Of a stretch of 51,957 bases of DNA, positions 6,331 through 41,409 are shown one piece after another. The notes below the pieces were generated by a model. It ran no database searches. It saw nothing but the letters and a program-made list of their open reading frames with translations, and was not told where the DNA came from. Made by a program: the position numbers and the translations under genes. The stretch covers positions 1-51,957 of the forward strand of contig LCKS01000003.1 in NCBI GenBank assembly GCA_001001555.1. The letters are read 5' to 3'. This DNA comes from Candidatus Amesbacteria bacterium GW2011_GWC2_45_19 (GTDB lineage Bacteria; Patescibacteriota; Microgenomatia; CAZETR01; Amesbacteraceae). Every line of letters starts with the position of its first letter. The first letter of the stretch is position 1.

Positions 6331-6395
6331 AAGTAGGGAAATTATATCACGTCCAAAGCGGCGGCGTGCGCTCCGTGTTATATAATGCTCTCTGT

Positions 6396-6902
6396 ATGGC
6401 GGAAAAATTAGCTCCATTAGCCAGAAGGGCTTTAGATACTAGAATTGCGGTTGTTTCTCAAAAAGCCGAGGAGCTTGCCCTTTCGTATGGAAAGATCGTT
6501 TCAGACGGAGGTGGAGATAGTTATGACGATGAGTTTGCTCGTCTCATTGAACAGGAAAAACTGATGGCTCAAGGAGCTGAATACACGGCCAGAGCTCTTC
6601 TCGCGTTGGAAATACTTACCCCCCCTACACAGTTTGAAGTTGTTGAAGTAGGTCATCGGGTAACGGTTAAATTTGAAGGAGATTCTGAATTAGGCGAGGC
6701 GGGAGTAACCGTATTAACTCCTGCTAATGTTATGCTATTAAAGGATTTATTTAATCAAAAAGATGAAATTATTGTGTCCGACCGAAGCCCTCTTGGTTCG
6801 GCTCTATTGAATAAGAGAGTTGGGGTTACGTTAAAATATACTCCCACATTATTTGCGAAGATACTCGAAATTAGTGTCAACGCCGAAATTTTTTTTGATT
6901 AA
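6396..6902 (+). CDS. GreA/GreB-family elongation factor-like protein
   Basis: VEVGHRVTV and IVSDRSPLGSALLNKRVG C-terminal Gre motifs; acidic coiled-coil tip. Confidence 0.75.
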   Translation: MAEKLAPLARRALDTRIAVVSQKAEELALSYGKIVSDGGGDSYDDEFARLIEQEKLMAQGAEYTARALLALEILTPPTQFEVVEVGHRVTVKFEGDSELGEAGVTVLTPANVMLLKDLFNQKDEIIVSDRSPLGSALLNKRVGVTLKYTPTLFAKILEISVNAEIFFD

Positions 6903-7420
6903 GACAGTTCTCTTGACGACATCCAATCGAGAAAAGCACAATTTATGGCCTCTTTGAAAGCTTGTTCTCGAGATACTAATAATGAAACAACTTTATTTTC
7001 GTAAGGATTTTTATTTTGGTATGCAGCGAATTCTCGTATTATTTGGCTGAATTGATTTCCTCTGCTTATTTTTTCTGACACTTCAGCTGGTAAACGAAGT
7101 TTACTACTTATTCCAACAAACTCCTTCTTATCTTGATCGATTATTACTGCCGCACATACTAGAAAATATCCCAGATTTTCTATAAAGACGAGACCTCCCT
7201 CGAGACCTATTCCAATTTCCATATTCTCTTTTGCCTTCTTAGCAGCTATTGCCCTATTTCTCGCGCCATTTAAGGTGGTGACTTCATCTAACGGTTGGTT
7301 GGTTATACCTGATTTCACTGAAAAACTTATAATCTTTGCTTCTATTTTCAAGTCAGTCAAAACTGATTTCAAAATACGCCTTTTATCTTCAGATGTAGTT
7401 CCTAATGCAATTTTAGTCAT
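6899..7420 (-). CDS. yjjX: inosine/xanthosine triphosphatase (YjjX/DUF84)
   Basis: LGTTSEDK, SGITNQP, GARNRA and GIGLEGG motifs. Confidence 0.85.
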   Translation of the reverse strand: MTKIALGTTSEDKRRILKSVLTDLKIEAKIISFSVKSGITNQPLDEVTTLNGARNRAIAAKKAKENMEIGIGLEGGLVFIENLGYFLVCAAVIIDQDKKEFVGISSKLRLPAEVSEKISRGNQFSQIIREFAAYQNKNPYENKVVSLLVSREQAFKEAINCAFLDWMSSRELS

Positions 7421-7425
7421 CGGAT

Positions 7426-8694
7426 TTATACATAATCTAACTTGTGACCCATGCGTCGTTTTTTTGTTTCTAAGTATTTCTTATTATGTTTTGTTGGTTG
7501 AATTTCCAGAACTTCAACGCTTTCAACAGGAACACCTAGGTCAATCAATTTGTTAATTTTGTCTGGGTTATTAGTTATTAATTTTATACTTCTAATACCT
7601 AGGTCATTTAATATGTCTCTGACTGCTTCGTAATTTCTTAGTTCAGCTGGGAAACCCAGTTTCTCGTTGGCATCTATCGTATCGAAACCGTCATCTTGTA
7701 GTCGATAAGCATTTATTTTATTAATAATATTTATTCCCCTTCCTTCCTGGAACAGATATATAAGTACTCCTTCGTTTTCATTATTAATTCTCTTCAAGGC
7801 TTTATGTAATTGGTTTCCACAATCACATCTTAAAGACGAAAACACATCCCCAGTAATGCACGAGGAATGAACCCGAACCATTACTCTAGTTTTGCCTTTA
7901 ACTTCTCCTCTTATTAAAGCTAAATGATATGAATAGTCAATTTGGGACTGAAATGAAAGCAGTACAAATTCTCCATACTTTGTTTGGAGTTTAGTGGCTG
8001 ATTTTTGACGATAAATCGGTAGCCCCTCTCTCGTGTTGCTCTTAATTTTCATTAGCATATTTGATGCGACTATCATCTCCGAATCATCTCCGTTCACACT
8101 AAAATAGTTTTCCGCTGACTGTTTAAGATTGTCAAAAACGGGCGTTATCTCGTTTAAATATTGTTGGTAGTCTTTTCTAACTAACTCTTTATCTATTTTT
8201 TCCGATTTTAGTGTAGACTTGTCTCTAGGACACATTCGCGATTGGGAATACAATGAGTCAGGGTCATAAGTTCTCCCGCATGTCCTACACAGTAACCTTT
8301 TTCTTAATCTAGAAACAATTGATTCTAGAGAAGTATTCACTTTGATTATGGCTTTAATTTTTAGATCATACTTTTTTACAATCTCGATCAACTTATCGGC
8401 CTCTTCCGTTCTTCTTGGAAACCCGTCTATCACTATTCCTTTACCCCCTTGCTTTAGCAGAAAACGACGTAATTTATCCTCGATTGCTCCAGCGATTAAA
8501 ACAGATTTTGTTTTATTATCAACCCTCTCGTTAACAATTTCGGAATACTCCTTGGGAAATTGTTTTTTGAATCTCTTGCTTCTTAAGAGTTTTCCCCATG
8601 AAATGTGTTGTAGTTTTAGATGTTCCGAAAGGACGACACCTTGCGTTGTCTTACCGCTTCCAGGTGCTCCCAGTATTAGATAAATATCAGTCAT
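7426..8694 (-). CDS. adenylate-kinase-like domain fused to GTP cyclohydrolase II (RibA-like)
   Basis: N-terminal GAPGSGKTT, IDGFPR and CxxC lid; C-terminal RVHSSCITGD...RCDC, QEGRGI, LITNNPDK. Confidence 0.9.
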   Translation of the reverse strand: MTDIYLILGAPGSGKTTQGVVLSEHLKLQHISWGKLLRSKRFKKQFPKEYSEIVNERVDNKTKSVLIAGAIEDKLRRFLLKQGGKGIVIDGFPRRTEEADKLIEIVKKYDLKIKAIIKVNTSLESIVSRLRKRLLCRTCGRTYDPDSLYSQSRMCPRDKSTLKSEKIDKELVRKDYQQYLNEITPVFDNLKQSAENYFSVNGDDSEMIVASNMLMKIKSNTREGLPIYRQKSATKLQTKYGEFVLLSFQSQIDYSYHLALIRGEVKGKTRVMVRVHSSCITGDVFSSLRCDCGNQLHKALKRINNENEGVLIYLFQEGRGINIINKINAYRLQDDGFDTIDANEKLGFPAELRNYEAVRDILNDLGIRSIKLITNNPDKINKLIDLGVPVESVEVLEIQPTKHNKKYLETKKRRMGHKLDYV

Positions 8695-8703
8695 GGAGTA
8701 ATT

Positions 8704-9816
8704 TTACTTACTATGAGATAAAATTTCAAGAAATGTGTCTAGTTGGCTTGATGAAAAATCATGATTTAGGGAGATGGCCAGAATTTTTGATTTTAGATTG
8801 CGAGCGTCTTTGTATTTATTCCATTTTACATATTTATGAAGATAGCTCCAGAATGGTTGTATATGTTTTAACCCTTTTTGGTAACCGATATCAGCCACTT
8901 TGCTGGAATTATAAACCAAAATAGGGAAGTTTAACGGTACAACGTTTTTTTCCAAAACGCTCTTAATTATTAGATTAGGGTAGTAGCAATTAAAGAGCTC
9001 AAGTAAAAGAAGAAAGCGTTTACGACGAACAGCTGCAATGTCAGAAAAACTTATTCTACTAACTAAAAATTTTGCAATATTTGAAATTGACAACTTGTAA
9101 CCTCCCTCCTTAGAAAGACGAGGACCGTGCTGTGAAGGTAAGGATGCGCCCACGCTAGAGTAAATGTCTGATATGGGGGTAGATGGCGGGAAAAGGTTCT
9201 GCAACATACCGAGATATAAAAAGAGGTCGAATGACGAAGCTTGATTGGACGGTGGTTGGAATTGAGGGGGAGGAATTTCGGGAGAATTTATTAATAACGC
9301 TCCACCATGAGGTATTGGTAGAAATTTCCTAAGGCTGAATATGGATGCGTGACCAAACGTGCCCAAAGGCTGGTCGTTGAGTTTTCCTCCCAAAGCTTGG
9401 GCGCAGTCTTCTATTAGAAATAAGTTGTTTGCTTCGCATAGTTTTTTAATTTGGGAAGTGTTTGATTGGGGGAAGCCAAAATAATGAGTGATAAGTATTG
9501 CGCTAGTTTTGGAAGTGATACATCGTTCTAGGTCGTGTGGATCTATTTCTAAATTGGAATGGACTGGATAAGTTATTGAGGTAAATCCAGCTTTAATAAG
9601 ACTCTCTATCTCATCTCCACATGAGTATGATGGCACGAGTATCTCTCTTTTTTGTGGCCAATATTTAATGATTTGTAGTGATATGCCATGTAGAGCGTTT
9701 CTTCCATATAGAGTAAAGATTGCTTTGGGGGTAGATAGTGGTTGGGGAAGTTGGGTATAAAAGTTTTTGGGAATGCAACTAGCCAAATCCGATTCAAGTT
9801 GAAAATCTAGGTTCAT
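8704..9816 (-). CDS. DegT/DnrJ/EryC1/StrS-family PLP aminotransferase
   Basis: ITHYFG, LIEDCAQALG, FSLRKFLPIPHGG (PLP lysine). Confidence 0.88.
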   Translation of the reverse strand: MNLDFQLESDLASCIPKNFYTQLPQPLSTPKAIFTLYGRNALHGISLQIIKYWPQKREILVPSYSCGDEIESLIKAGFTSITYPVHSNLEIDPHDLERCITSKTSAILITHYFGFPQSNTSQIKKLCEANNLFLIEDCAQALGGKLNDQPLGTFGHASIFSLRKFLPIPHGGALLINSPEIPPPQFQPPSNQASSFDLFLYLGMLQNLFPPSTPISDIYSSVGASLPSQHGPRLSKEGGYKLSISNIAKFLVSRISFSDIAAVRRKRFLLLLELFNCYYPNLIIKSVLEKNVVPLNFPILVYNSSKVADIGYQKGLKHIQPFWSYLHKYVKWNKYKDARNLKSKILAISLNHDFSSSQLDTFLEILSHSK

Positions 9817-10796
9817 ATGCTTAATTCTACATCGAAGGACTGCAAATACCTTACTGGGTGAAATCTAAGTTTATGTTGGCGGGTTCCAAACTCTGATCCT
9901 AACTCTCCATCATTGACAAATTTGGCTCCGAGTTTTTTTAACTGAGAAAAAATATGTAGGTATGTAGCATCCGATGCGCCTCTGATACCCCCTTCCTCAG
10001 ACCGGTTAATGCCTTTGAGCATATAGATAATGCCGTATTGCAAAAATTGGGGGTGCAAAAAAAAGATACTTAGGCTACAGGTAAACGACCCCACCTTTCC
10101 CAGGAGAAGATTAAGTTCAGGATGGGTATACGAGAAACTTACAAGTTTTTCCAATACAAATTTCTCTTTATCCATTTTATTTTTAGAGTACTTGTATCCT
10201 TGGACTGAATTCCAGTGTTCTATTAACTTAAAACCTACGTGTAGGTTAGAATTGTTTATTTTTTCGAAGCAAACTTTATTTGAAGTTAGTAAACGGTTTC
10301 TAGTTTGTCGAAGATGGTTAAAAGCTTGACTAGGCAGAGAAGTAAGGAGATCTAAGTCATAAATTACTTCCTCTTTAGATCTGGAAAGCACACTCACAAG
10401 AGAAAACGTCTTATGGAGAAGCATAAGATTTTTATCAAGCCAAGATTGGCTGATATTTAAAACATCAAAGCTGTGCAGATTTAAACTTGACGCAAATTGT
10501 TTGAAGTTTAGAAAAAAGGTTGGATTTTGGATATCAGCCGTAAAAAGATGGAGTTTATTATCGCGGAATATCAGTACGCTTTGCCCATGAGGGCTGTAAA
10601 TGGAGTAAATATTCGATTTAAACTTAAGATAAGATAATATATGGATCCAATTTTGCTCGAAAATTGGGTCTGGTTCGCGTGCGAATAAGTGGGATATAAA
10701 ATCAACAGTTTCCTGAGAAGGTTGGTTTAATTCAGTAAGTAAAAAGTCATTTCTGTTCGCCATGCTACTCATATAATTAAAGTTTAGATTATCCAT
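9813..10796 (-). CDS. DUF2156 / LPG-synthase C-terminal-like (aminoacyl-tRNA-dependent transferase fold) protein
   Basis: VIYDLDLLTSL...LRQTRNRL and FVNDGELGSEFGTRQHKLRFHP resemble the DUF2156 pattern (YIY...L..L.G...RN..N.F; YINREEDLG..GLRKAKLSYHP); ATG 10796 overlaps upstream stop. Confidence 0.65.
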   Translation of the reverse strand: MDNLNFNYMSSMANRNDFLLTELNQPSQETVDFISHLFAREPDPIFEQNWIHILSYLKFKSNIYSIYSPHGQSVLIFRDNKLHLFTADIQNPTFFLNFKQFASSLNLHSFDVLNISQSWLDKNLMLLHKTFSLVSVLSRSKEEVIYDLDLLTSLPSQAFNHLRQTRNRLLTSNKVCFEKINNSNLHVGFKLIEHWNSVQGYKYSKNKMDKEKFVLEKLVSFSYTHPELNLLLGKVGSFTCSLSIFFLHPQFLQYGIIYMLKGINRSEEGGIRGASDATYLHIFSQLKKLGAKFVNDGELGSEFGTRQHKLRFHPVRYLQSFDVELSI

Positions 10797-11709
10797 TTTT
10801 AATTGGATAAATAATTGGTAAGGGGTTTTGTTGATCCATACCACTATACATTCGTCCTCGCTCATAAGCACTTTCGGTCCAATACATTAATCCAGACTTG
10901 TGGAGTATTCGAAAGGTATTGCCCATAAATGCATAACTTGCAGCTAAAATTTTTGTTCGTGTAGCTACTTGATCTTCTGACCAACCTAGGTTTTCTTTAT
11001 AAAATACTAGATTTCTTAGATAAACAGCGCGGCAAATATCGGCGGGAATGGGGGGATTATCTGCGATTAAACCAAATTCGCCGATTTTGTCTGTAAACGC
11101 TTGAACTTCTGATAGCAGTTTGGTTTCAATTATTCCTTGGGAGTTTTGTGATTCGAAGATTTGTTGGAAGTCTGAATAGTTACTGGCCAGATCAGAACGG
11201 TATGCCGTATTTTTAAGGAGATTGTAGTTTTCCAAAAGGAGATCGCTGAAATAAGCAATCCCATGTGTCGGAATTATTTCGTTTGAAGCGTGGATGAAAG
11301 TTGATATTTCAGATACCATTTTTTTGGTATGACTACCAGTGGTTCCGACGTATCCAATCTCTCCGACACCTTTCTTGTATGATGGGCAAAAAACTGAGTA
11401 AACCAATAAGGGGTGGCCGGATAAAACGACATCTATTATTACTTGCTGAATTTTCTTGGAAGTAAATTTATCCCTGAATTCTAAGGAACTAGTTTTGTTT
11501 AAGAACCTCCACCATTTAAGAAGTTTACAAAGTATGGCTATGTTGGATTCGGAATAACTTGTCTTTTGATAACTGATTGGAGTTCCAACCTTTCGTTGCC
11601 GTGCAATATTAACAAGCTGACCAATCTCAGGGATTGAAACCGAATTTGAGTTTGGAAGGCAGAGTTCTACGATTTCTTTCCAGCTGAATGTATTTTTTTG
11701 ACTTAACAT
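10789..11709 (-). CDS. unknown enzyme, possibly Rossmann/HUP-like
   Basis: ORF coupled in the operon; LLVYSVFCPSY and GIAYFSDLL strand-loop motifs; ATG 11709 chosen because track start 11742 lies within the tRNA-like gene. Confidence 0.6.
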   Translation of the reverse strand: MLSQKNTFSWKEIVELCLPNSNSVSIPEIGQLVNIARQRKVGTPISYQKTSYSESNIAILCKLLKWWRFLNKTSSLEFRDKFTSKKIQQVIIDVVLSGHPLLVYSVFCPSYKKGVGEIGYVGTTGSHTKKMVSEISTFIHASNEIIPTHGIAYFSDLLLENYNLLKNTAYRSDLASNYSDFQQIFESQNSQGIIETKLLSEVQAFTDKIGEFGLIADNPPIPADICRAVYLRNLVFYKENLGWSEDQVATRTKILAASYAFMGNTFRILHKSGLMYWTESAYERGRMYSGMDQQNPLPIIYPIKNG

Positions 11710-11718
11710 AAGTTCAGG

Positions 11719-11791
11719 AGCCCGGGGGTGGACTTGAACCATCGTCCTCTTGTAAACGAAACAAGCGCTCTCTCTGCTGAGCTACCCGGGC
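11719..11791 (-). tRNA. atypical tRNA-Thr(CGT)-like gene
   Basis: Cloverleaf GCCCGGG TA GCTC AGCAGAGA GAGC G CTTGT TTCGTTT ACAAG AGGAC GATGG TTCAAGT CCACC CCCGGGC T; no G18G19, U37/U38, A50-C64 mismatch, CCA not encoded. Confidence 0.8.
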
Positions 11792-12459
11792 TTATTTGAA
11801 TTGAATCTAAAAATGGTTGATAGTTGGTCTGCTATTTTGTCTTGACTCTGCAATCCATCTATTTCTACCACATCTGATACTAGGTTGCGAAGAATAGGGA
11901 GAGTTTGGCTCATGTAGTCGTCAAAATCGTGGAAGCGTCTACTTAAAACTTCTGGAGAGTCATCTTCTCTTTGGGTTAATTTAATTAAACAATTTGGACA
12001 AGTGGGGCAAGAGAGAGATTTGCTGTCATGCATAGAAAATGTTTTCTGGCAATGGGGGCAAATTCGTCTACTCTCAGCGCGTTTTACGGCTTCATCAAGT
12101 GTGATACTAATAATAGCCACAGATCCGAGTTTAAGCCTGTGTTCCCTCGCAAGTTTTTCGAAGCTGTGTGCTTCACGGCCATATTTAGGATATCCGTCAA
12201 GAACGGCGATTGATGTGTTTGTTGTTAGTATGTGGGTTCGCAAAGTTTGGGTGATAAGTTCGGGCGGATATTCTTTAATTGCTTCAAGATAACTTTTAAG
12301 TTGTAAGCCCAGAGCTGAACCGCTGTTGATTTCATTTCGAGTAATATTTCCCACCGAAATGTAAGTCACGTCAGATTTATTAGCTAAATGTTGCATTGCT
12401 TCAGTTTTACCGCTGCATGGTCTACCGTAGATGAAGTGGAAAATTGTCTTCCTTTCCAT
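11782..12459 (-). CDS. adenylate/nucleoside monophosphate kinase family protein
   Basis: GRPCSGKT P-loop, LDGYPK, Zn lid CPHC...CPTC, QREDD. Confidence 0.85.
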   Translation of the reverse strand: MERKTIFHFIYGRPCSGKTEAMQHLANKSDVTYISVGNITRNEINSGSALGLQLKSYLEAIKEYPPELITQTLRTHILTTNTSIAVLDGYPKYGREAHSFEKLAREHRLKLGSVAIISITLDEAVKRAESRRICPHCQKTFSMHDSKSLSCPTCPNCLIKLTQREDDSPEVLSRRFHDFDDYMSQTLPILRNLVSDVVEIDGLQSQDKIADQLSTIFRFNSNKPG

Positions 12460-12504
12460 AGATAAGTTTTGCTATATAGCAAGTTGGGATTACAGTTACG
12501 GACA

Positions 12505-22724: not shown

Positions 22725-24436
22725 TAGACTTTGGCTATTATATCAGCTGTGACGCCCGAAATAAACTCTGCAATAGGTTTAGTGACGTTTTCTTTGTCCC
22801 CGCGGTGACGGATTGAGATTAATCCAGCCTCGGCCTCGCGGTTACCGACGACCAGGATATAGGGAATTTTTTGCATTTCGGCGTCCCGCACTCGCGCCGG
22901 TAGCGGCTCGTTCCGCAAAACTAATTCACAACGAATGTTAGCTAATTTCAACGAATCCAAAACCTTTTGGGCGTAATCGGCGTGTTTGTCGGAAATGGGC
23001 AGAATGACGGCCTGAACCGGCGCCAGCCAAAGCGGAAATGCCCCGCCGTAGTGTTCGATTAATATGCCAATGAACCTTTCTAATGATCCGTAAATGACTC
23101 TGTGAATGGTTACTGGAGTTTTTTGAGTTCCATCTGCAGCCGTATATTGGAGTTTGAATCGGCGGGGTTGTTGAAAGTCTAGCTGAACTGTTCCCATTTG
23201 CCACTCCCGTCCCAACGAATCCTTCATTAAAATGTCTACTTTTGGTCCGTAGAAAGCTCCGTCACCGTCAAGAATGGAATACTCTTTGCCGCTGTCTTCT
23301 AGGATCTTCTTTAAAGTAGCTTCGGCTTTGTCCCAAGTAGCTACGTTACCCATGAAATTCTCAGGATTCCTGGTGCCTAATCTGAAGGAATATTTAAGGT
23401 TAAAAACGGAGTAGAAACGTTCGACGATATCGAAGACCTCTTTGTATTCTGATTTAATTTGATCTTTTGAAACATAGATGTGGGCATCATCTTGGCGAAA
23501 TTCCCGAACTCGAAAAAGCCCGTTCAAGACACCCGATCTTTCATAGCGGTGCAATGAGTCTGTGTCGGAAAGCCTTAAAGGCAAATCTCTGTAACTTCTG
23601 GTTTTGGAGCCAAAAACCACATGTGCATTGGGGCAGTTCATAGCTTTGACGCCATATTCCCCTTCGTCATCTGTTTTAGCAACAAACATCTCGCTCCAGT
23701 AGTGATCGTAGTGACCTGAAGTGATATAGAGCTCTTTTTTGTTCAGAATAGGCGAAACTATTTCCTGATAACCTCTACTTTTGTGCTCCCGGCGCCAGAA
23801 ATTGACTAATTCATTGTAAATTATGACGCCTTTCGGAAGCCAATATGGCATGCCCGGGGCTGTTTCGTGGAACATAAAAAGTTCCAGAGCGGGGCCAAGT
23901 TTTTTGTGATCTCTCTTTTTGGATTCTTCCAACATAGTCAGATATTCGTCTAATTCTTTCCGGGTGGAGAAGGCAGTGCCGTAAATGCGGGAGAGCATCT
24001 TATTCTTCTCATTGCCACGCCAATAAGCCCCAGCTATAGATAGAAGCCTGAAATGTTTGAGTTCTTTAGATGGATGTTCACAATGACCGCCGCGGCATAA
24101 ATCGGTAAAGCTGCCGCTTTGGTAAATAGTTATTGGTTCATGGTTCTTAGTCAGATCAGCGATAAGCTCCAGCTTGTAGGAGTTATGGCTAAATTGTTGC
24201 ATGGCCTTCTGATCGTTGACTTCGATTTTTTTGAATTCACTCCATGATTTGACTAGTTCGTGCATTTTGGTTTCAATGCGGGGCAGATCTTCTCCGGAAA
24301 TTTTCAGATTATCGAAGTCGTAGTAAAAGCCGTTGTCGATAGCCGGGCCGATAGTAGGTAGAGCCTTGGGATAGAGATCCAATACAGCCGCCGCTAGCAG
24401 ATGGGCGCATGAGTGACGGAGGTTGTCGTAGTTCAC
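22724..24436 (-). CDS. thrS: threonyl-tRNA synthetase (no N-terminal TGS domain)
   Basis: RHSCAHLLA, DLCRGGH, KAMNCP, GAFYGPK, GSLERF. Confidence 0.96.
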   Translation of the reverse strand: MNYDNLRHSCAHLLAAAVLDLYPKALPTIGPAIDNGFYYDFDNLKISGEDLPRIETKMHELVKSWSEFKKIEVNDQKAMQQFSHNSYKLELIADLTKNHEPITIYQSGSFTDLCRGGHCEHPSKELKHFRLLSIAGAYWRGNEKNKMLSRIYGTAFSTRKELDEYLTMLEESKKRDHKKLGPALELFMFHETAPGMPYWLPKGVIIYNELVNFWRREHKSRGYQEIVSPILNKKELYITSGHYDHYWSEMFVAKTDDEGEYGVKAMNCPNAHVVFGSKTRSYRDLPLRLSDTDSLHRYERSGVLNGLFRVREFRQDDAHIYVSKDQIKSEYKEVFDIVERFYSVFNLKYSFRLGTRNPENFMGNVATWDKAEATLKKILEDSGKEYSILDGDGAFYGPKVDILMKDSLGREWQMGTVQLDFQQPRRFKLQYTAADGTQKTPVTIHRVIYGSLERFIGILIEHYGGAFPLWLAPVQAVILPISDKHADYAQKVLDSLKLANIRCELVLRNEPLPARVRDAEMQKIPYILVVGNREAEAGLISIRHRGDKENVTKPIAEFISGVTADIIAKV

Positions 24437-37480: not shown

Positions 37481-39043
37481 ATGAAATACTTTATTTATGC
37501 TCGCAAGAGCACAGAAGAAGATGACCGTCAGGTCTTATCCATTGAAGCTCAACTTGTTGAGCTCAAAGAATTTGCCGCCAAAGAAAAACTTGAAATTGTC
37601 GCATCGCTTTGCGAGGCAAAAACTGCCAAAGAACCTGGACGAATAAAATTCGCAGAAATGTTGTCAATGATTGAAAAAGGCAAGGCAGACGGAATAATTT
37701 CGTGGCACCCCGACAGATTAGCAAGGAATAGCGTAGATGGCGGAAAGATAATCTATTTTGTAGATTGCGGCTTGATTAAGTCCCTCAAATTTCCCACTTT
37801 TTGGTTTGAGCCAACGCCGCAAGGACTTTTTATGCTCAACATCGCTTTTGGCCAATCAAAATATTTTGTAGATAATTTGCGAGAGAATGTAAAAAGGGGT
37901 TTGAGGCAGAAAATCAGAAATGGCGTTTGGCCCGGCTGGGCGCCAGTAGGTTATCTCAACAATCCTAAAACTCGCTTAATTGATATTGACCGAGAAAAAT
38001 CGGGTAAGGTAAGAAAACTTTTCGAGCTTTATTCCACCGGCGGATATACTCTAAAATCTCTCGCAAATTGGTGCAAAGAAAAAGGGTTGCGTGGAAATCT
38101 TGGAAAGGAAATCGCGATCGGCAACATTCAAAAGATTCTACAAAATATTTTCTACATTGGTTTGATGAAATATCGTAGGGAAATTTTTGAGGGACAACAC
38201 GAACCGTTAATTTTAAAGAAACTTTTTGATAAATGCCAAGAAGTGATGAGTAAACGCGGCAAAGTGCAAGAAGTGAGAAAACACCACTTCGCTTTTCTTG
38301 GCTTACTCAAATGTCCTTCCTGCGGTTGTTCAATCACTGGAGAGAGGCAGAAAGGGCATAACTATTATCGTTGCACCAAAAAGAAAGGGCCATGCCAAGA
38401 AAAGCACTATTTGAGAGAAGAAGCACTAACAGAGCAAATTAAAACATTCCTTCAAAAAGTTTCTTTGTCGAGCCAAGACACCGAGAAAGTTTTGGCGGCG
38501 TTAGACGCAGAACAGGAAAAAGCGAGAGAGGACGCGCAAAACGAGGTGGTAAATCTCAAAGAGGAATTAGCGAGTGTAGAAACGAAGTTAGCAAGGCTCC
38601 TCGATATTTATTTGGCAGACGCTTTATCCACAGAAGAATACGCCGCCAAAAAACAAAGTTTACTTTCACAAAAAGTGTCGTTGAGTGAAAAAATAACCGA
38701 CTTTGAGACAAAAGGTCTGTCTTGGCTCGAACCGGCTCGTGGGTTCGTAAAATCCTTAAATCAAGCCGCTAATCTCATTCAAACAGATACTCTTTCCGAA
38801 TTGCCAACATTTCTTAAAAACATCGGCTCGAACCATATTTTACGAAATCGCCAACTGATTTTTTCGCCCAAAATTCCTTACAATTTGGTCGCCGAGCAAA
38901 GCGAGGCGAACCGAAACCGCTTGCAAATTCCTTACTGGTGCCGGGAGCGAGACTCGAACTCGCACAGTCCAATGGACTGCGGGCTCTTAAGGCCCGTGTG
39001 TCTGCCATTCCACCACCCCGGCTGGTGCAATTGTTTGAACTAG
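37481..39043 (+). CDS. large serine recombinase
   Basis: YARKS, DRLARN, recombinase domain HEPLI, Zn ribbon CPSCG...YYRC, coiled coil; ATG 37481. Confidence 0.95.
   Translation: MKYFIYARKSTEEDDRQVLSIEAQLVELKEFAAKEKLEIVASLCEAKTAKEPGRIKFAEMLSMIEKGKADGIISWHPDRLARNSVDGGKIIYFVDCGLIKSLKFPTFWFEPTPQGLFMLNIAFGQSKYFVDNLRENVKRGLRQKIRNGVWPGWAPVGYLNNPKTRLIDIDREKSGKVRKLFELYSTGGYTLKSLANWCKEKGLRGNLGKEIAIGNIQKILQNIFYIGLMKYRREIFEGQHEPLILKKLFDKCQEVMSKRGKVQEVRKHHFAFLGLLKCPSCGCSITGERQKGHNYYRCTKKKGPCQEKHYLREEALTEQIKTFLQKVSLSSQDTEKVLAALDAEQEKAREDAQNEVVNLKEELASVETKLARLLDIYLADALSTEEYAAKKQSLLSQKVSLSEKITDFETKGLSWLEPARGFVKSLNQAANLIQTDTLSELPTFLKNIGSNHILRNRQLIFSPKIPYNLVAEQSEANRNRLQIPYWCRERDSNSHSPMDCGLLRPVCLPFHHPGWCNCLN
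38936..39022 (-). tRNA. tRNA-Leu(TAA)
   Basis: CGGGC-CTTAAGA-GCCCG anticodon arm; long variable arm; CCA encoded. Confidence 0.93.
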
Positions 39044-39210
39044 CTCGGACCTATTTTACCAGTAATTTTTAGAAATTATTTTTACCGGGACAAAAAAGGG
39101 GTCAAAAGTGTATTTTCGTGAAGTCGATTAATTCTACTTAGTGTTCCAAATTGGAATTTATCCTATATTTGTAGTAGAATATAAAATGTCGTAAGAAGTA
39201 CTAGTATTGT

Positions 39211-39954
39211 ATGTCCAATTTTTCTGAAATTGCTGAGGTTGATCCAACTGCTGATTATGGATATGCTTACGGACCGAGAGAATTAGAAATACTATCAGTA
39301 GAAAATACCGTTGCTAAGCTGAGAGAGAAAGTTGCTCCTTTTCGATTTAGACTTGCTGCAAGAGATATTTCAAGGGAATTAGGACTGCAAGGTGGAGAAA
39401 GAATTTTGGAGTTAGGAAGCGGCCTTGGGCTTCTTGGCAAAGCGATGAAAGAAGAGGTTCATGGAGATCTAGAATACTATGGTGTAGAGCTTGCTTTTAA
39501 ACCTGCGACGAAAAGTAAAGAAAACTTAATTTTACCCATACAGGCCGATGTTGTAAAGCTACCGTTCGTGAACGAATCTTTCGATGCTGTAGTTTCAACT
39601 GACGTCCTGGAACATATTGCCAACGCCGATGGAGCAGTTGAAGAAATAAAAAGGGTTCTTAAGCCGGACGGTAAAGCATTTATTGTAATCGCCGATCCCT
39701 CCGAAGCGAGATTTCAAAATGTCACGGGGCATATAGCCAGGTCCAATAAAGGCCCCGATATATTTTTTTGGGAAGATTTGTTTAAAGCACATGGATTTCT
39801 AGTTTTAGAAAAAGAATCAAAAAAATACAGTGCACGAGACTGGAGAAGAATTTTTAATCTCCCTTTCTTAGTCAAACTGAAAAATAAACCAGGATTTGCT
39901 TGTGCTTTTAACCCCGTAAATCGTCCGGGAACATACATTCTCAAGAAAACTTAG
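39211..39954 (+). CDS. class I SAM-dependent methyltransferase
   Basis: ILELGSGLG, SFDAVVSTDVLEHI, RVLKPDG. Confidence 0.9.
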   Translation: MSNFSEIAEVDPTADYGYAYGPRELEILSVENTVAKLREKVAPFRFRLAARDISRELGLQGGERILELGSGLGLLGKAMKEEVHGDLEYYGVELAFKPATKSKENLILPIQADVVKLPFVNESFDAVVSTDVLEHIANADGAVEEIKRVLKPDGKAFIVIADPSEARFQNVTGHIARSNKGPDIFFWEDLFKAHGFLVLEKESKKYSARDWRRIFNLPFLVKLKNKPGFACAFNPVNRPGTYILKKT

Positions 39955-39979
39955 TCTACTGGCTTGTTCGAAATTTTTG

Positions 39980-40053
39980 TGGACGCTGAGGGACTCGAAC
40001 CCCCGGCCCCCGCTGTGTAAAAGCGATGCTCTGGCCAGCTGAGCTAAGCGTCC
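39980..40053 (-). tRNA. tRNA-Val(TAC)
   Basis: GGACGCT acceptor; anticodon loop TTTACAC. Confidence 0.92.
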
Positions 40054-40298
40054 AATACATTAATTATAGCTTGTTTAATCTTCTTTCCAAAACCCATTTT
40101 ATAAAAACTTTCTCTTTTTCGAGCATCTGCTTCGCAAAGATAATCTTCATGATAAATAAGTTTAAACGGCCCATTTGATTTAGTCCAAGTATTGGAACCA
40201 CTATTGTGTTCATCCAACCTGATTCTTGGATCTTTCGAAGTGAACCCAACGTAAACTTTATTATTGTTTACACTTCTTAAAAAATATACGTGATACAT
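40044..40298 (-). CDS. small GIY-YIG nuclease
   Basis: YHVYFL...VYVGFT...RLDEHN...ARKRE. Confidence 0.9.
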   Translation of the reverse strand: MYHVYFLRSVNNNKVYVGFTSKDPRIRLDEHNSGSNTWTKSNGPFKLIYHEDYLCEADARKRESFYKMGFGKKIKQAIINVLDA

Positions 40299-40300
40299 AA

Positions 40301-40351
40301 GCCAGCTGCCAGCCAGAGGCTGGTCGTCCTCTGGACGAAGCTAAGCGTCCA
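40301..40351. repeat. duplicated tRNA-Val 5' end split by a 30-bp double hairpin
   Basis: 40301-40308 plus 40339-40351 equal 40034-40054; insert CCAGCC-AGA-GGCTGG-TCGTCC-TCT-GGACGA. Confidence 0.85.
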
Positions 40352-40354
40352 GTG

Positions 40355-40438
40355 TGCCGAGAAGAGGACTCGAACCTCCACGCCATTTCTGGCACATGTC
40401 CCTCAAACATGCCTGTCTACCAGTTCCAGCATCCCGGC
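40355..40438 (-). tRNA. tRNA-Leu(GAG)
   Basis: CATGT-TTGAGGG-ACATG anticodon arm; variable arm. Confidence 0.93.
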
Positions 40439-41059
40439 TCGTCTTCTGATTATACCTAACGCACGCTTAATTTTGAACCTTTTGCGCTTAAGGTAGATAT
40501 TGTTGTTGCCCTGATATATTTTACTGACCAGGGAAATAGAACTTTTTTTTGCGTACATAAGATGGTATGTCGATTTTCCTGAATATTTAATAGCTCCATG
40601 AATATTGTACAAAGACTCTACCTTTTCTTTGATCCATTCTAAGTGCCTTTTACTTGCGGATAAAAAACCCGTGTAAAACATAAAACTTGATTTCCACCGT
40701 TTGTCCCAATATGAATATGTGTATCCATCCCCATCTAGATGGCCTCTTAAAAAATGGGAGAAATACTTGTCTGGAATAATTAATTCTTGGAGTGACTTAG
40801 TTTTATTCGGGTGTAATCCAACTGATATAAGAAATTTGTAAAGTTTGACGTTGCTAAATTGAACAAAATAGTACTTTTTGATTCCAGTGTAGGAACTTGC
40901 CCTTTTATTAATTTTGCTATTTATCTTTATGGAATGTAGAAAATTTTGGATTTGATCTAAATCCTTAGATACGAGTGATAGGTGCCTGCCATCTTTAGAT
41001 AAATTTCCATCTGTGGTAATTAAACCTACTGCGTAGGCAAGATTTTTAGACCAATGCAT
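40403..41059 (-). CDS. free-standing LAGLIDADG homing-endonuclease-like protein
   Basis: LAYAVGLITTDG and FLRGHLDGDG motifs. Confidence 0.88.
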   Translation of the reverse strand: MHWSKNLAYAVGLITTDGNLSKDGRHLSLVSKDLDQIQNFLHSIKINSKINKRASSYTGIKKYYFVQFSNVKLYKFLISVGLHPNKTKSLQELIIPDKYFSHFLRGHLDGDGYTYSYWDKRWKSSFMFYTGFLSASKRHLEWIKEKVESLYNIHGAIKYSGKSTYHLMYAKKSSISLVSKIYQGNNNIYLKRKRFKIKRALGIIRRRAGMLELVDRHV

Positions 41060-41110
41060 ACTATAATTATCTCAAGTGTATACCGTATACTTTTGGAAGC
41101 AAAATACGTG

Positions 41111-41194
41111 TGCCCAAAGGGAGACTCGGACTCCCACAGCCTTGCGGCCACATGCTCCTGAAGCATGCGCGTCTGCCAATTCCGCCATCTGGGC
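41111..41194 (-). tRNA. tRNA-Leu(CAG)
   Basis: CATGC-TTCAGGA-GCATG anticodon arm; T-loop TCCGAGT. Confidence 0.92.
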
Positions 41195-41222
41195 ACTAAG
41201 GTATTATATAATAGTCTCACTG

Positions 41223-41295
41223 GCCGAGGTAGCCAAGATGGTCAAGGCACCTGTCTGAAGAACAGGCTATGTCAGTTCGAGTCTGACCCTCGGCA
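41223..41295 (+). tRNA. tRNA-Phe(GAA)
   Basis: CCTGT-CTGAAGA-ACAGG anticodon arm; TATAAT upstream. Confidence 0.92.
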
Positions 41296-41300
41296 CCCAA

Positions 41301-41371
41301 GCGGCTATGGTTCATCGGTAGAATATCTCCTTGCCAAGGAGAAGAGACGGGTTCAATTCCCGTTAGCCGCT
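41301..41371 (+). tRNA. tRNA-Gly(GCC)
   Basis: TCTCC-TTGCCAA-GGAGA anticodon arm; U73. Confidence 0.92.
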
Positions 41372-41409
41372 CACGAGAGGTAATGCGGTTTGACTGTTCT
41401 GGTTAAGTT

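Follow-up and report, generated by a model that had tools for sequence, protein, structure and literature searches.

The contig LCKS01000003.1 of Candidatus Amesbacteria bacterium GW2011_GWC2_45_19 (51,957 nt, hereafter the window, which is the complete contig C3 of the 0.81-Mb genome G000, 21 contigs, 95.7% complete) carries an AT-rich island in which seven closely packed elements follow one another in the order ADK1, tRNA, UNK317, DUF2156, DegT-like, ADK-GTP cyclohydrolase II (GCHII) and DUF84, with a GreA-like gene converging on DUF84 through a 4-nt overlap (Table 1). The six protein-coding genes of this cassette are minus-strand open reading frames (ORFs) within 6899-12459 whose neighbours overlap or sit no more than 9 nt apart, and GC content is 0.33-0.43 across 6600-12400 compared with 0.48-0.57 in both flanks. 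The first-pass annotation, which had been made from the sequence letters and a list of ORFs, described six tightly coupled AT-rich genes, and this description is borne out, as are, by Pfam and NCBIfam, its calls of a nucleoside monophosphate (NMP) kinase, a DegT enzyme, a kinase-GCHII fusion and a YjjX-type NTPase. In the empty-site comparison, which covered three genomes of the same genus and four of the same family, rnc directly adjoins rpsP-KH without the cassette or a Gre-like gene in 7/7 relatives, and the insert limits given in Table 1, with the Gre-like gene included, follow from this; the insertion had earlier been placed between rnc and a greA-like gene, of which the rnc flank stands, but the greA-like gene lies within the insert and the true flanks are rpsP and rnc. 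Neither flanking direct or terminal repeats nor an integrase was found at the island ends, and scans for promoters and terminators gave no more matches than expected from shuffles.

Table 1. Coordinates in the window of the island and of the elements that it carries.
Feature	Coordinates	Strand	Evidence
Inserted island, ~6.2 kb	6331..12504	.	Between rpsP (S16) and rnc; AT-rich
ADK1, adenylate-kinase-family NMP kinase, Cys-rich lid	11782..12459	-	PF00406 E=1.2e-17; TIGR01351 E=1e-33, below its cut-off
Operon tRNA, Thr identity type, anticodon CGU	11719..11791	-	ARAGORN; Rfam 53.9 bits
UNK317, new family, 306 aa	10789..11709	-	Modelled fold: class-I aminoacyl-tRNA synthetase / cyclodipeptide-synthase / PvcA-like Rossmann fold
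Predicted DUF2156 / LPG_synthase_C-type aminoacyl-tRNA transferase homologue, 327-aa ORF	9813..10796	-	PF09924 of homologues; modelled fold
DegT/DnrJ/EryC1-like pyridoxal phosphate (PLP) enzyme	8704..9816	-	PF01041 E=1.6e-22, residues 27-181
ADK-like kinase (residues 1-215) + GCHII (residues 230-420) fusion	7426..8694	-	PF00406 E=1.9e-20; PF00925 E=2.3e-61
DUF84 (YjjX/Mj0226-type) non-canonical NTPase	6899..7420	-	PF01931 E=1.3e-26, 93.8 bits
Divergent GreA/Rnk-like secondary-channel factor	6366..6902	+	PF01272 24.6 bits; NF004548 (Rnk) E=2.1e-5

The tRNA-like gene of the first-pass annotation is a real tRNA gene, called by ARAGORN as tRNA-Thr(cgt) at 11717-11791 and scoring 53.9 bits with the Rfam tRNA model against a gathering score of 29. 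A canonical tRNA-Thr(CGU) is also present on contig C2, so that the island copy is the second of its kind in the genome. The island copy has the anticodon loop UUCGUUU (UU-CGU-UU, with U37) and the D-loop AGCAGAGA, which lacks GG, and in the three ordinary tRNA-Thr of the host U33, A37 and the D-loop GG are all present. The combination of a GCC start with U73 is found in only 4 of the 45 tRNAs of the genome, namely the three host tRNA-Thr and the island copy, and the genome encodes a single ThrRS. The gene for this ThrRS happens to lie in the window (22745-24418, minus strand), ~10 kb from the island, which is probably a coincidence.

A profile of DUF2156 homologues run against 185,579 species genomes gave nine loci, on which the cassette genes were placed by tblastn and ARAGORN. 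The complete cassette order is found in six of the nine (L001, L004, L005, L007, L008, and L009), and in L003 it is preserved up to DegT, where the contig ends; L002 is rearranged (GCHII - DUF84 - DUF2156 - DegT, without ADK1 or UNK317) and of the cassette genes L006 retains only DUF2156, beside a GCHII-containing protein. The ADK1/UNK317 junction is present in seven of the protein-seeded loci, and in 7/7 of these a tRNA occupies it; ARAGORN names five of these tRNA-Thr (UGU or CGU) and one 'Glu(ttc)', the latter because of the 9-nt loop in that copy, and misses the one in L009, which is plainly the same molecule. A second search, seeded with the D-arm and T-loop pattern of the tRNA in a metagenome collection, returned 21 stretches, 19 of which have an ADK1 homologue on one side and an UNK317 homologue on the other as far as the contigs extend, and a scan of viral contigs with the tRNA body gave 0 matches. 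The remaining two, L012 (2340-2416) and L026, hold GC-rich tRNA-like sequences with the same unusual D-arm (GTAGCTCAGCAGAGAGAGC) and a different acceptor stem and anticodon arm, and no cassette genes lie near them. Eight parts, that is the seven cassette parts and the GreA-like factor, thus travel together, with proteins only 30-50% identical across the tRNA-bearing loci and with neither an exporter nor other conserved neighbours at the loci. The expectations of the first-pass annotation that the genes would be found together elsewhere and that homologous loci would keep the tRNA are therefore both upheld. The cassette is nevertheless rare and patchy in the phylum, since a DUF2156 homologue occurs in 1/401 evenly sampled genomes, G000 itself. 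Record titles of the loci name Saccharibacteria, Paceibacterota, Taylorbacteria, WWE3, and one Nanoarchaeota metagenome-assembled genome; the cassette copy on the contig labelled Nanoarchaeota archaeon (L003 / L013) may reflect cross-domain transfer or a binning error. A search of sequencing runs for this sequence listed 19 DNA runs, from groundwater and soil metagenomes, and no RNA run. The tRNA gene was also considered as the mark of an integration site and this was ruled out, since in every locus it lies inside the cassette, and no tRNA stands at the empty site of the relatives.

Alignment of the tRNAs (A4, 20 distinct variant sequences) shows a covarying cloverleaf, with pairing in 98.6% of cells, both-sided changes in 10 of 21 pairs including all 5 pairs of the anticodon stem, a covariation score reached by 0/500 shuffles, and pairing of only 31-50% in slid registers. 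The pairs G1-C72, C2-G71, and C3-G70, U73, the entire D-stem and most of the T-arm are invariant, and the D-loop is AG[C/A]AGAGA without G18G19 in 20/20 variants. The centre of the anticodon loop is, by our reading of the alignment rows, N-G-U in every variant (C, U or A at 34), although the loop around it is 8-9 nt long in 3 of the 20 and, among the 17 loops of seven nucleotides, has A33 in 4 and U37 in 10. Compared with a canonical elongator tRNA-Thr, the operon tRNA therefore has the cloverleaf, the conserved Thr-type acceptor end and the NGU anticodon with its constant G35-U36, but conserves neither the 7-nt loop with U33 and a purine at 37 nor G18G19; as in non-proteogenic tRNAs, it is an extra isoacceptor linked to an aminoacyl-tRNA transferase homologue. 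Threonine identity resides in acceptor-stem pairs and anticodon nucleotides according to the available passages of one study (PMC9976931), and those of another describe a ThrRS as able to charge a tRNA with an enlarged, 8-nt loop (PMC4756836). The pattern of what is kept and what is lost suggests that the operon tRNA is a non-decoding aminoacyl carrier, in which the needs of the synthetase have been retained and those of the ribosome let go. A C-to-A change in the D-loop (AGAAGAGA) accompanies a C56-to-A change in the T-loop (TTAAAGT) and an altered T-stem in L009, L016, and L021, and in L022 only the D-loop has changed (the alignment columns concerned are 16 in the D-loop and 58 in the T-loop); the paired changes may reflect a tertiary contact between the D-loop and T-loop in place of G19-C56.

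The tRNA is also built into the reading frames around it. In every locus with the junction, ADK1 stands on one side of the tRNA and UNK317/DUF2156 on the other, and the stop codon of ADK1, a TAG in the window, coincides with tRNA positions 8-10 (11782-11791); in 17/17 loci in which the frame runs on, this stop lies within the tRNA or a little beyond it, mostly as U8-A9-G10. On the other side, UNK317 starts 4-23 nt downstream of the tRNA discriminator across loci. The start of the unknown-enzyme ORF had been placed at 11742, but the first 11 codons of this 317-aa ORF are the T-arm and acceptor strand of the tRNA, and the start of UNK317 is consequently the ATG at 11709. Excision of the tRNA from a polycistronic RNA would leave a stop-less ADK1 message and a nearly leaderless UNK317 message. 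The position of the ADK1 stop within the tRNA could serve as a switch between expression of the kinase and expression of the tRNA.

The protein encoded at 9813-10796 is predicted to be a homologue of aminoacyl-tRNA transferases of the DUF2156 / LPG_synthase_C type. The window protein itself has no direct Pfam match at E<=0.01 (PF09924), although PF09924 is present in 14/18 database homologues of the ORF and its fused relatives score 25-36 bits, and a profile of the family run against sequences of the Protein Data Bank (PDB) found the DUF2156 structure 2hqy at E=0.011 with all other matches at chance level. The AlphaFold2 (AF2) model has a predicted local distance difference test score (pLDDT) of 92.9 and matches 2hqy in Foldseek at E=2.3e-13 with template modelling (TM) scores of 0.75/0.82, followed by L-PGS, Sbb17/Sba18, MprF, and FemX, which is the tandem GNAT fold of the FemX type that the first-pass annotation had predicted for this ORF; its DUF2156-like call thus holds for the fold and the homologues, but not for a direct domain match. 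DUF2156 proteins of the cassette have no membrane domain, and where they are fused, the partner is UNK317 and not a flippase.

UNK317 has no match beyond chance level in Pfam, NCBIfam or PDB sequences, none of 15 family members matches any Pfam family at E<=1 (PF16715 and PF05141 included), and a protein atlas search gave no usable match. For this 'unknown enzyme' of the first-pass annotation, which had recognised neither its fold nor its fusions in other organisms, a fold can now be proposed from the AF2 model (pLDDT 92.4); the model on Foldseek resembles PIsnA (E=4.7e-05), PvcA, and TyrRS (E=1.8e-04). In VIA-align, which is independent of Foldseek, the model scores Z 13.1 with PvcA, 11.2-12.3 with TyrRS (12.3 over 206 residues), 8.1-9.4 with TrpRS, and 8.4-10.9 with cyclodipeptide synthases (CDPSs), the best of these being 10.9 (5ocd), 10.2 (5mlq, 6y4b), and 9.8 (9j61) over 184-205 residues. 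The modelled structure is accordingly that of a class-I aminoacyl-tRNA synthetase (aaRS) Rossmann core, with the PvcA, TyrRS, and CDPS scores so nearly tied (PvcA and TyrRS within about 1) that they do not distinguish a subfamily. Twenty-eight columns are invariant in the alignment of 15 homologues (A2), in which there is no HIGH or KMSKS-like motif and no invariant His; a Gly-rich, phosphate-loop-like FCPSYKKGxGxxGYxG follows strand 1, and FSDLLLEN and ESAYERG are also conserved. The invariant C108-P109 and nearly invariant S110 lie right after strand 1 and may or may not correspond to the catalytic Ser that follows strand 1 in CDPSs and forms the aminoacyl-enzyme. The genome has no PF16715 match. 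UNK317 and DUF2156 form a single ORF in L004 and L005 and in the database proteins P0083, P0085, P0088, P0090, and P0081; UNK317-ADK fusions occur in P0097, P0099, and P0115 and an NDK-UNK317 fusion in P0122, and UNK317 is thereby linked with nucleotide phosphorylation as well as with the aminoacyl-tRNA transferase homologue. The family is small, with 64 clusters in 5.8 billion proteins, for which the names given are all 'hypothetical protein', and 105 representatives among 1.84 billion proteins, of which 0/20 scanned match Pfam over this domain.

The second domain of the ADK-GCHII fusion protein scores 206.6 bits with PF00925, 225.1 with TIGR00505 (cut-off 205.85), and 240.4 with NF001591 (cut-off 148), and above the equivalog-domain cut-off it is assigned by its sequence as a bona fide GCHII. 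GCHII occurs in 38/401 genomes of the phylum, and the ADK part is absent from the ten best other loci. Lumazine synthase and RibD_C were both searched for in the 95.7%-complete genome and not found, although both searches were positive in 14/14 control genomes; the earlier remark that the window has no other riboflavin genes thus extends to the whole genome, and GCHII is not there for riboflavin synthesis. It adjoins every DUF2156 homologue where the contig permits, including the variant loci L002 and L006, and is the partner common to all cassette forms. Both kinases match adenylate kinase over their full length, the NMP-binding and lid regions included; a role for ADK1 as the housekeeping adk was ruled out, a separate, weaker ADK-family match on contig C4 being presumed to fill it. 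The DegT-like protein matches PF01041 with 80.7 bits (cut-off 19.8) over its N-terminal half only, and its D137 (IEDCA) and K164 (FSLRK) are invariant across 11 homologues; we take them to be the pyridine-N Asp and the PLP Lys, respectively. In the two variant loci, an unannotated protein of 385-391 aa common to both stands beside DUF2156 (L002:4678-5835, L006:6769-7944), for which the leads in the atlas are weak, unnamed or NTP_transf_2, and the 543-aa product of L006:5141-6772 begins with a GCHII domain, while its C-terminal half has no known family.

A protein with the GreA_GreB-C domain adjoins the cassette in 12 loci (the window and 11 further ones), either after DUF84 (window, L004, L005, L007, L008, L028, and L031) or before ADK1 (L001, L009, L019, L029, and L015). 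The window protein reaches 24.6 bits with PF01272, below the cut-off of 26.9, compared with 38-58 bits for the cassette-linked homologues, and in a search in which the island copy scored 24.7 bits the canonical GreA on contig C1 scored 84 bits. The acidic tip appears to be retained, with the tip Asp invariant in 12 sequences and D-L-P-E-N or HDE motifs aligning with the motif DLSEN of the host GreA.

Taken together, these features point, with a probability of roughly 0.5, to a horizontally acquired, self-contained cassette for tRNA-dependent nucleotide tailoring, with a pathway in which a private threonyl-tRNA carrier donates to a ring-opened, GTP-derived acceptor. The tRNA would be cut from the polycistronic RNA and charged by the single ThrRS of the host through the kept G1-C72, C2-G71, C3-G70, U73, and G35-U36, and, since the anticodon loop and the D-loop presumably fail the requirements of the ribosome, it would not enter translation. 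It could then act as the private threonyl carrier for UNK317 and DUF2156, which would work as a pair (one polypeptide in some organisms). The kinase domains would feed GCHII, whose ring-opened diaminopyrimidine nucleotide presents free amines, and UNK317 and DUF2156 would aminoacylate one amine of this product made by ADK-GCHII from guanine nucleotides. The PLP enzyme may then remodel the aminoacyl or sugar part, possibly with a transamination that enables ring closure to a pteridine-like product, or with an 8-substituted purine nucleotide as the outcome, and DUF84 and the kinases would set the phosphorylation state of the product. Through the GreA-like factor, acting either protectively or as a co-factor, the product might be connected with RNA polymerase. 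Our best guess for the product is a threonylated derivative of the GCHII product. Co-inheritance, the modelled folds, the tRNA features, the fusions and the lack of riboflavin genes are what the data show; which enzyme does the charging, that threonine is the cargo, and what acceptor, product and role belong to the pathway are inferred. The first-pass annotation had proposed that the operon builds an aminoacylated, perhaps threonylated, modified nucleotide or amino-sugar such as a toxin, signal or defence metabolite; the tRNA features fit a donor kept out of translation, but threonine, the acceptor and any role as toxin, signal or defence compound stay conjectural. A broader version of the proposal is more tentative, namely that the cassette is a portable 'tRNA-as-cofactor' module, loaded by ThrRS and unreadable by the ribosome, which moves by horizontal transfer, with the UNK317 family and a DUF2156 transferase, across the candidate phyla radiation (CPR) and possibly into DPANN archaea and makes an undescribed class of aminoacylated nucleotides derived from ring-opened GTP, pteridine-like or 8-substituted purine nucleotides for instance, with RNA polymerase as a target or safeguarded through the Gre-like factor.

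Several observations weigh against the private-carrier pathway or qualify the evidence for it. The search pattern itself prescribed the D-arm and T-loop of the 19 metagenome tRNAs, so that conservation of these parts is independently tested only by the seven protein-seeded loci, which agree, and several loci are near-duplicates of one another. Both the DUF2156 and the GreA-like protein of the window fall below Pfam thresholds. The use of aminoacyl-tRNA by UNK317 is suggested by modelled fold and context, without a sequence relation to CDPSs or to Pfam families, and comparison of A2 with an alignment of four Patescibacteria CDPSs (A5) gave an hhalign probability of 0.1. Variant loci also limit the pathway: L019 keeps ADK1, tRNA, UNK317, ADK-GCHII, and DUF84 without DUF2156 or DegT within 13 kb, and in L002 and L006, where DUF2156 and GCHII are present, both UNK317 and an operon-type tRNA are missing; from these variants, the tRNA tracks UNK317/ADK1 more tightly than DUF2156.

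In a different division of labour, UNK317 itself would be a highly divergent synthetase-like enzyme that charges the private tRNA, either with threonine or with a non-proteinogenic acid, and DUF2156 would pass the group on, the two forming a pair of aaRS and DUF2156, split or fused, as in LysX or fungal ErdS. The class-I aaRS catalytic fold (TyrRS Z 12.3, 206 residues), the Gly-rich phosphate-loop-like motif after strand 1, a gene start only 4-23 nt past the tRNA, and fusions to ADK and NDK that suggest nucleotide use are all in keeping with such an enzyme, and a non-decoding tRNA would make most sense if its cargo were harmful in proteins. UNK317 is moreover N-terminal to DUF2156 in L004, L005, and five database proteins, which mirrors the AspRS-DUF2156 layout of ErdS in the available parts of two reports (PMC7334510, PMC8913301). 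N-G-U would then be the mark of UNK317 and not of ThrRS, but the acceptor end and discriminator are identical to those of host tRNA-Thr, for which recognition by ThrRS is the simpler account, and UNK317 has neither HIGH/KMSKS nor an invariant His (15 homologues) and no sequence match to any aaRS family, so that we regard charging by UNK317 as unlikely.

Less probable still is a use of the tRNA as a scaffold for rebuilding the amino acid, in the style of selenocysteine or of Sep-tRNA-to-Cys conversion, with Thr-tRNA phosphorylated by a kinase and converted by the PLP enzyme to carry a non-proteinogenic residue, which UNK317/DUF2156 would deliver, and with the degenerate anticodon loop barring the altered cargo from proteins. 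The PSTK/SepSecS route has the same set of components, that is a kinase, a PLP enzyme and a dedicated tRNA. A P-loop kinase and a fold-type-I PLP enzyme with an invariant Lys do accompany a private tRNA that lacks decoding features, and the scheme would account for ordinary Thr-tRNA not sufficing; the kinases, however, match adenylate kinase full length and not the PSTK-type family, GCHII and DUF84, the most constant partners, are left without a role, and L019 retains the tRNA without a PLP enzyme. An incidental tRNA, whether an element that serves RNA processing or stability or a passenger isoacceptor in decay, among genes for nucleotide salvage and house-cleaning and an unrelated lipid-aminoacylating DUF2156, is very improbable, for although CPR genomes depend on salvage, DUF84, ADK, and NDK are salvage or house-cleaning families and the ADK1 stop inside the tRNA could make it mainly a processing site, such a tRNA would hardly keep 98.6% pairing, compensatory changes and a constant acceptor end, D-arm, and G35-U36 where the proteins are only 30-50% identical, nor does a rare, patchy cassette (1/401 genomes) resemble core salvage, or a DUF2156 without a membrane domain, fused to UNK317 rather than a flippase, resemble a lipid-aminoacylating enzyme.

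The private threonyl-tRNA carrier has its closest precedent in the non-proteogenic tRNA-Gly of staphylococci, which serves FmhB/FemA/FemB and likewise consists of extra isoacceptors alongside the normal ones; in the passages available, S. aureus and S. epidermidis are the only species in which such tRNAs had been detected up to then (PMC7826273). The fold family of FmhB/FemA/FemB is among the Foldseek matches of the cassette DUF2156 model. The cassette tRNA differs in being encoded within the biosynthetic operon, with which it moves between distant lineages, in an anticodon loop degenerate in size, position 33, and position 37, which is unreported for the staphylococcal tRNAs, and in an acceptor that is probably not peptidoglycan. 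Mycobacterial LysX is an aaRS-DUF2156 fusion enzyme. Fungal ErdS (AspRS + DUF2156), as described in part of its report, has the same layout of synthetase fold and DUF2156 as the UNK317-DUF2156 fusions (PMC7334510). In contrast to ErdS and LysX, UNK317 is no recognisable aaRS (no HIGH/KMSKS, no family match), and the cassette has no membrane or lipid context but nucleotide-enzyme partners and a dedicated tRNA gene. CDPSs and the PvcA/IsnA isonitrile synthases have a Rossmann core in common with the UNK317 model, and CDPSs use aminoacyl-tRNAs as substrates in the available account (PMC3105412); UNK317 is distinct from both in lacking PF16715/PF05141 and in its own motif set (FCPSY, FSDLLLEN, ESAYERG).

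Transfer from an aminoacyl-tRNA donor onto the amine of a small molecule is known from Sbb17/Sba18 (streptothricin-type), PacB, and AcmF (ascamycin), and the available passages of a 2026 review of aminoacyl-tRNA-dependent enzymes, which treats these systems, contain none of the terms 'cyclohydrolase', 'tRNA gene', and 'DUF2156' (PMC12945691). The Sbb17/Sba18 structures are among the top Foldseek matches of the DUF2156 model; unlike these nucleoside and amino-sugar antibiotic systems, the cassette is not from an actinomycete and has no exporter. GCHII of riboflavin and toxoflavin synthesis has the same bona fide domain, but the cassette version is fused to an ADK-like kinase in a genome without RibD_C/lumazine synthase. 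PADLOC returned only marginal matches to Cas10 (E=0.007) and mad8 (E=5e-4, on the P-loop), which were rejected as meaningless, and the cassette is therefore no member of a known defence system. A literature search in full text, supplements aside, found neither this cassette described nor any account of a cluster of this kind that contains a tRNA gene or is linked with GCHII. tRNA-dependent biosynthesis of small molecules is itself known; the unprecedented features are the operon-borne, putatively non-decoding tRNA and the new family with a predicted aaRS fold, and the chemistry of the cassette may prove categorically new as well.

Two further observations concern tRNA genes outside the island. 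Six of them form a cluster in the window, within 2.5 kb at 38936-41372 (Leu-taa, Val-tac, Leu-gag, Leu-cag, Phe, and Gly), and on contig C16 of the same genome (8526-8600), outside the window, ARAGORN reports a 'tRNA-Stop(tta)', a UAA-reading, suppressor-like tRNA flanked by tRNA-Gln(ttg) and tRNA-Lys(ctt).

In the available passages of the staphylococcal work, a dedicated non-translating tRNA has been documented so far only for staphylococcal cell-wall synthesis (PMC7826273). If the private-carrier pathway is correct, the cassette would be the first biosynthetic operon to encode and carry its own tRNA, one in which the anticodon loop has been visibly freed from decoding while the marks of synthetase identity stay, and this tRNA would be coupled to an unannotated family of proteins with an aaRS/CDPS fold. 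Aminoacyl-tRNA chemistry would also be linked with GCHII beyond riboflavin synthesis. The cassette would thus offer a natural, testable model of a tRNA leaving translation, and may prove a source of new nucleotide chemistry in CPR bacteria, the metabolism of which is mostly unknown.

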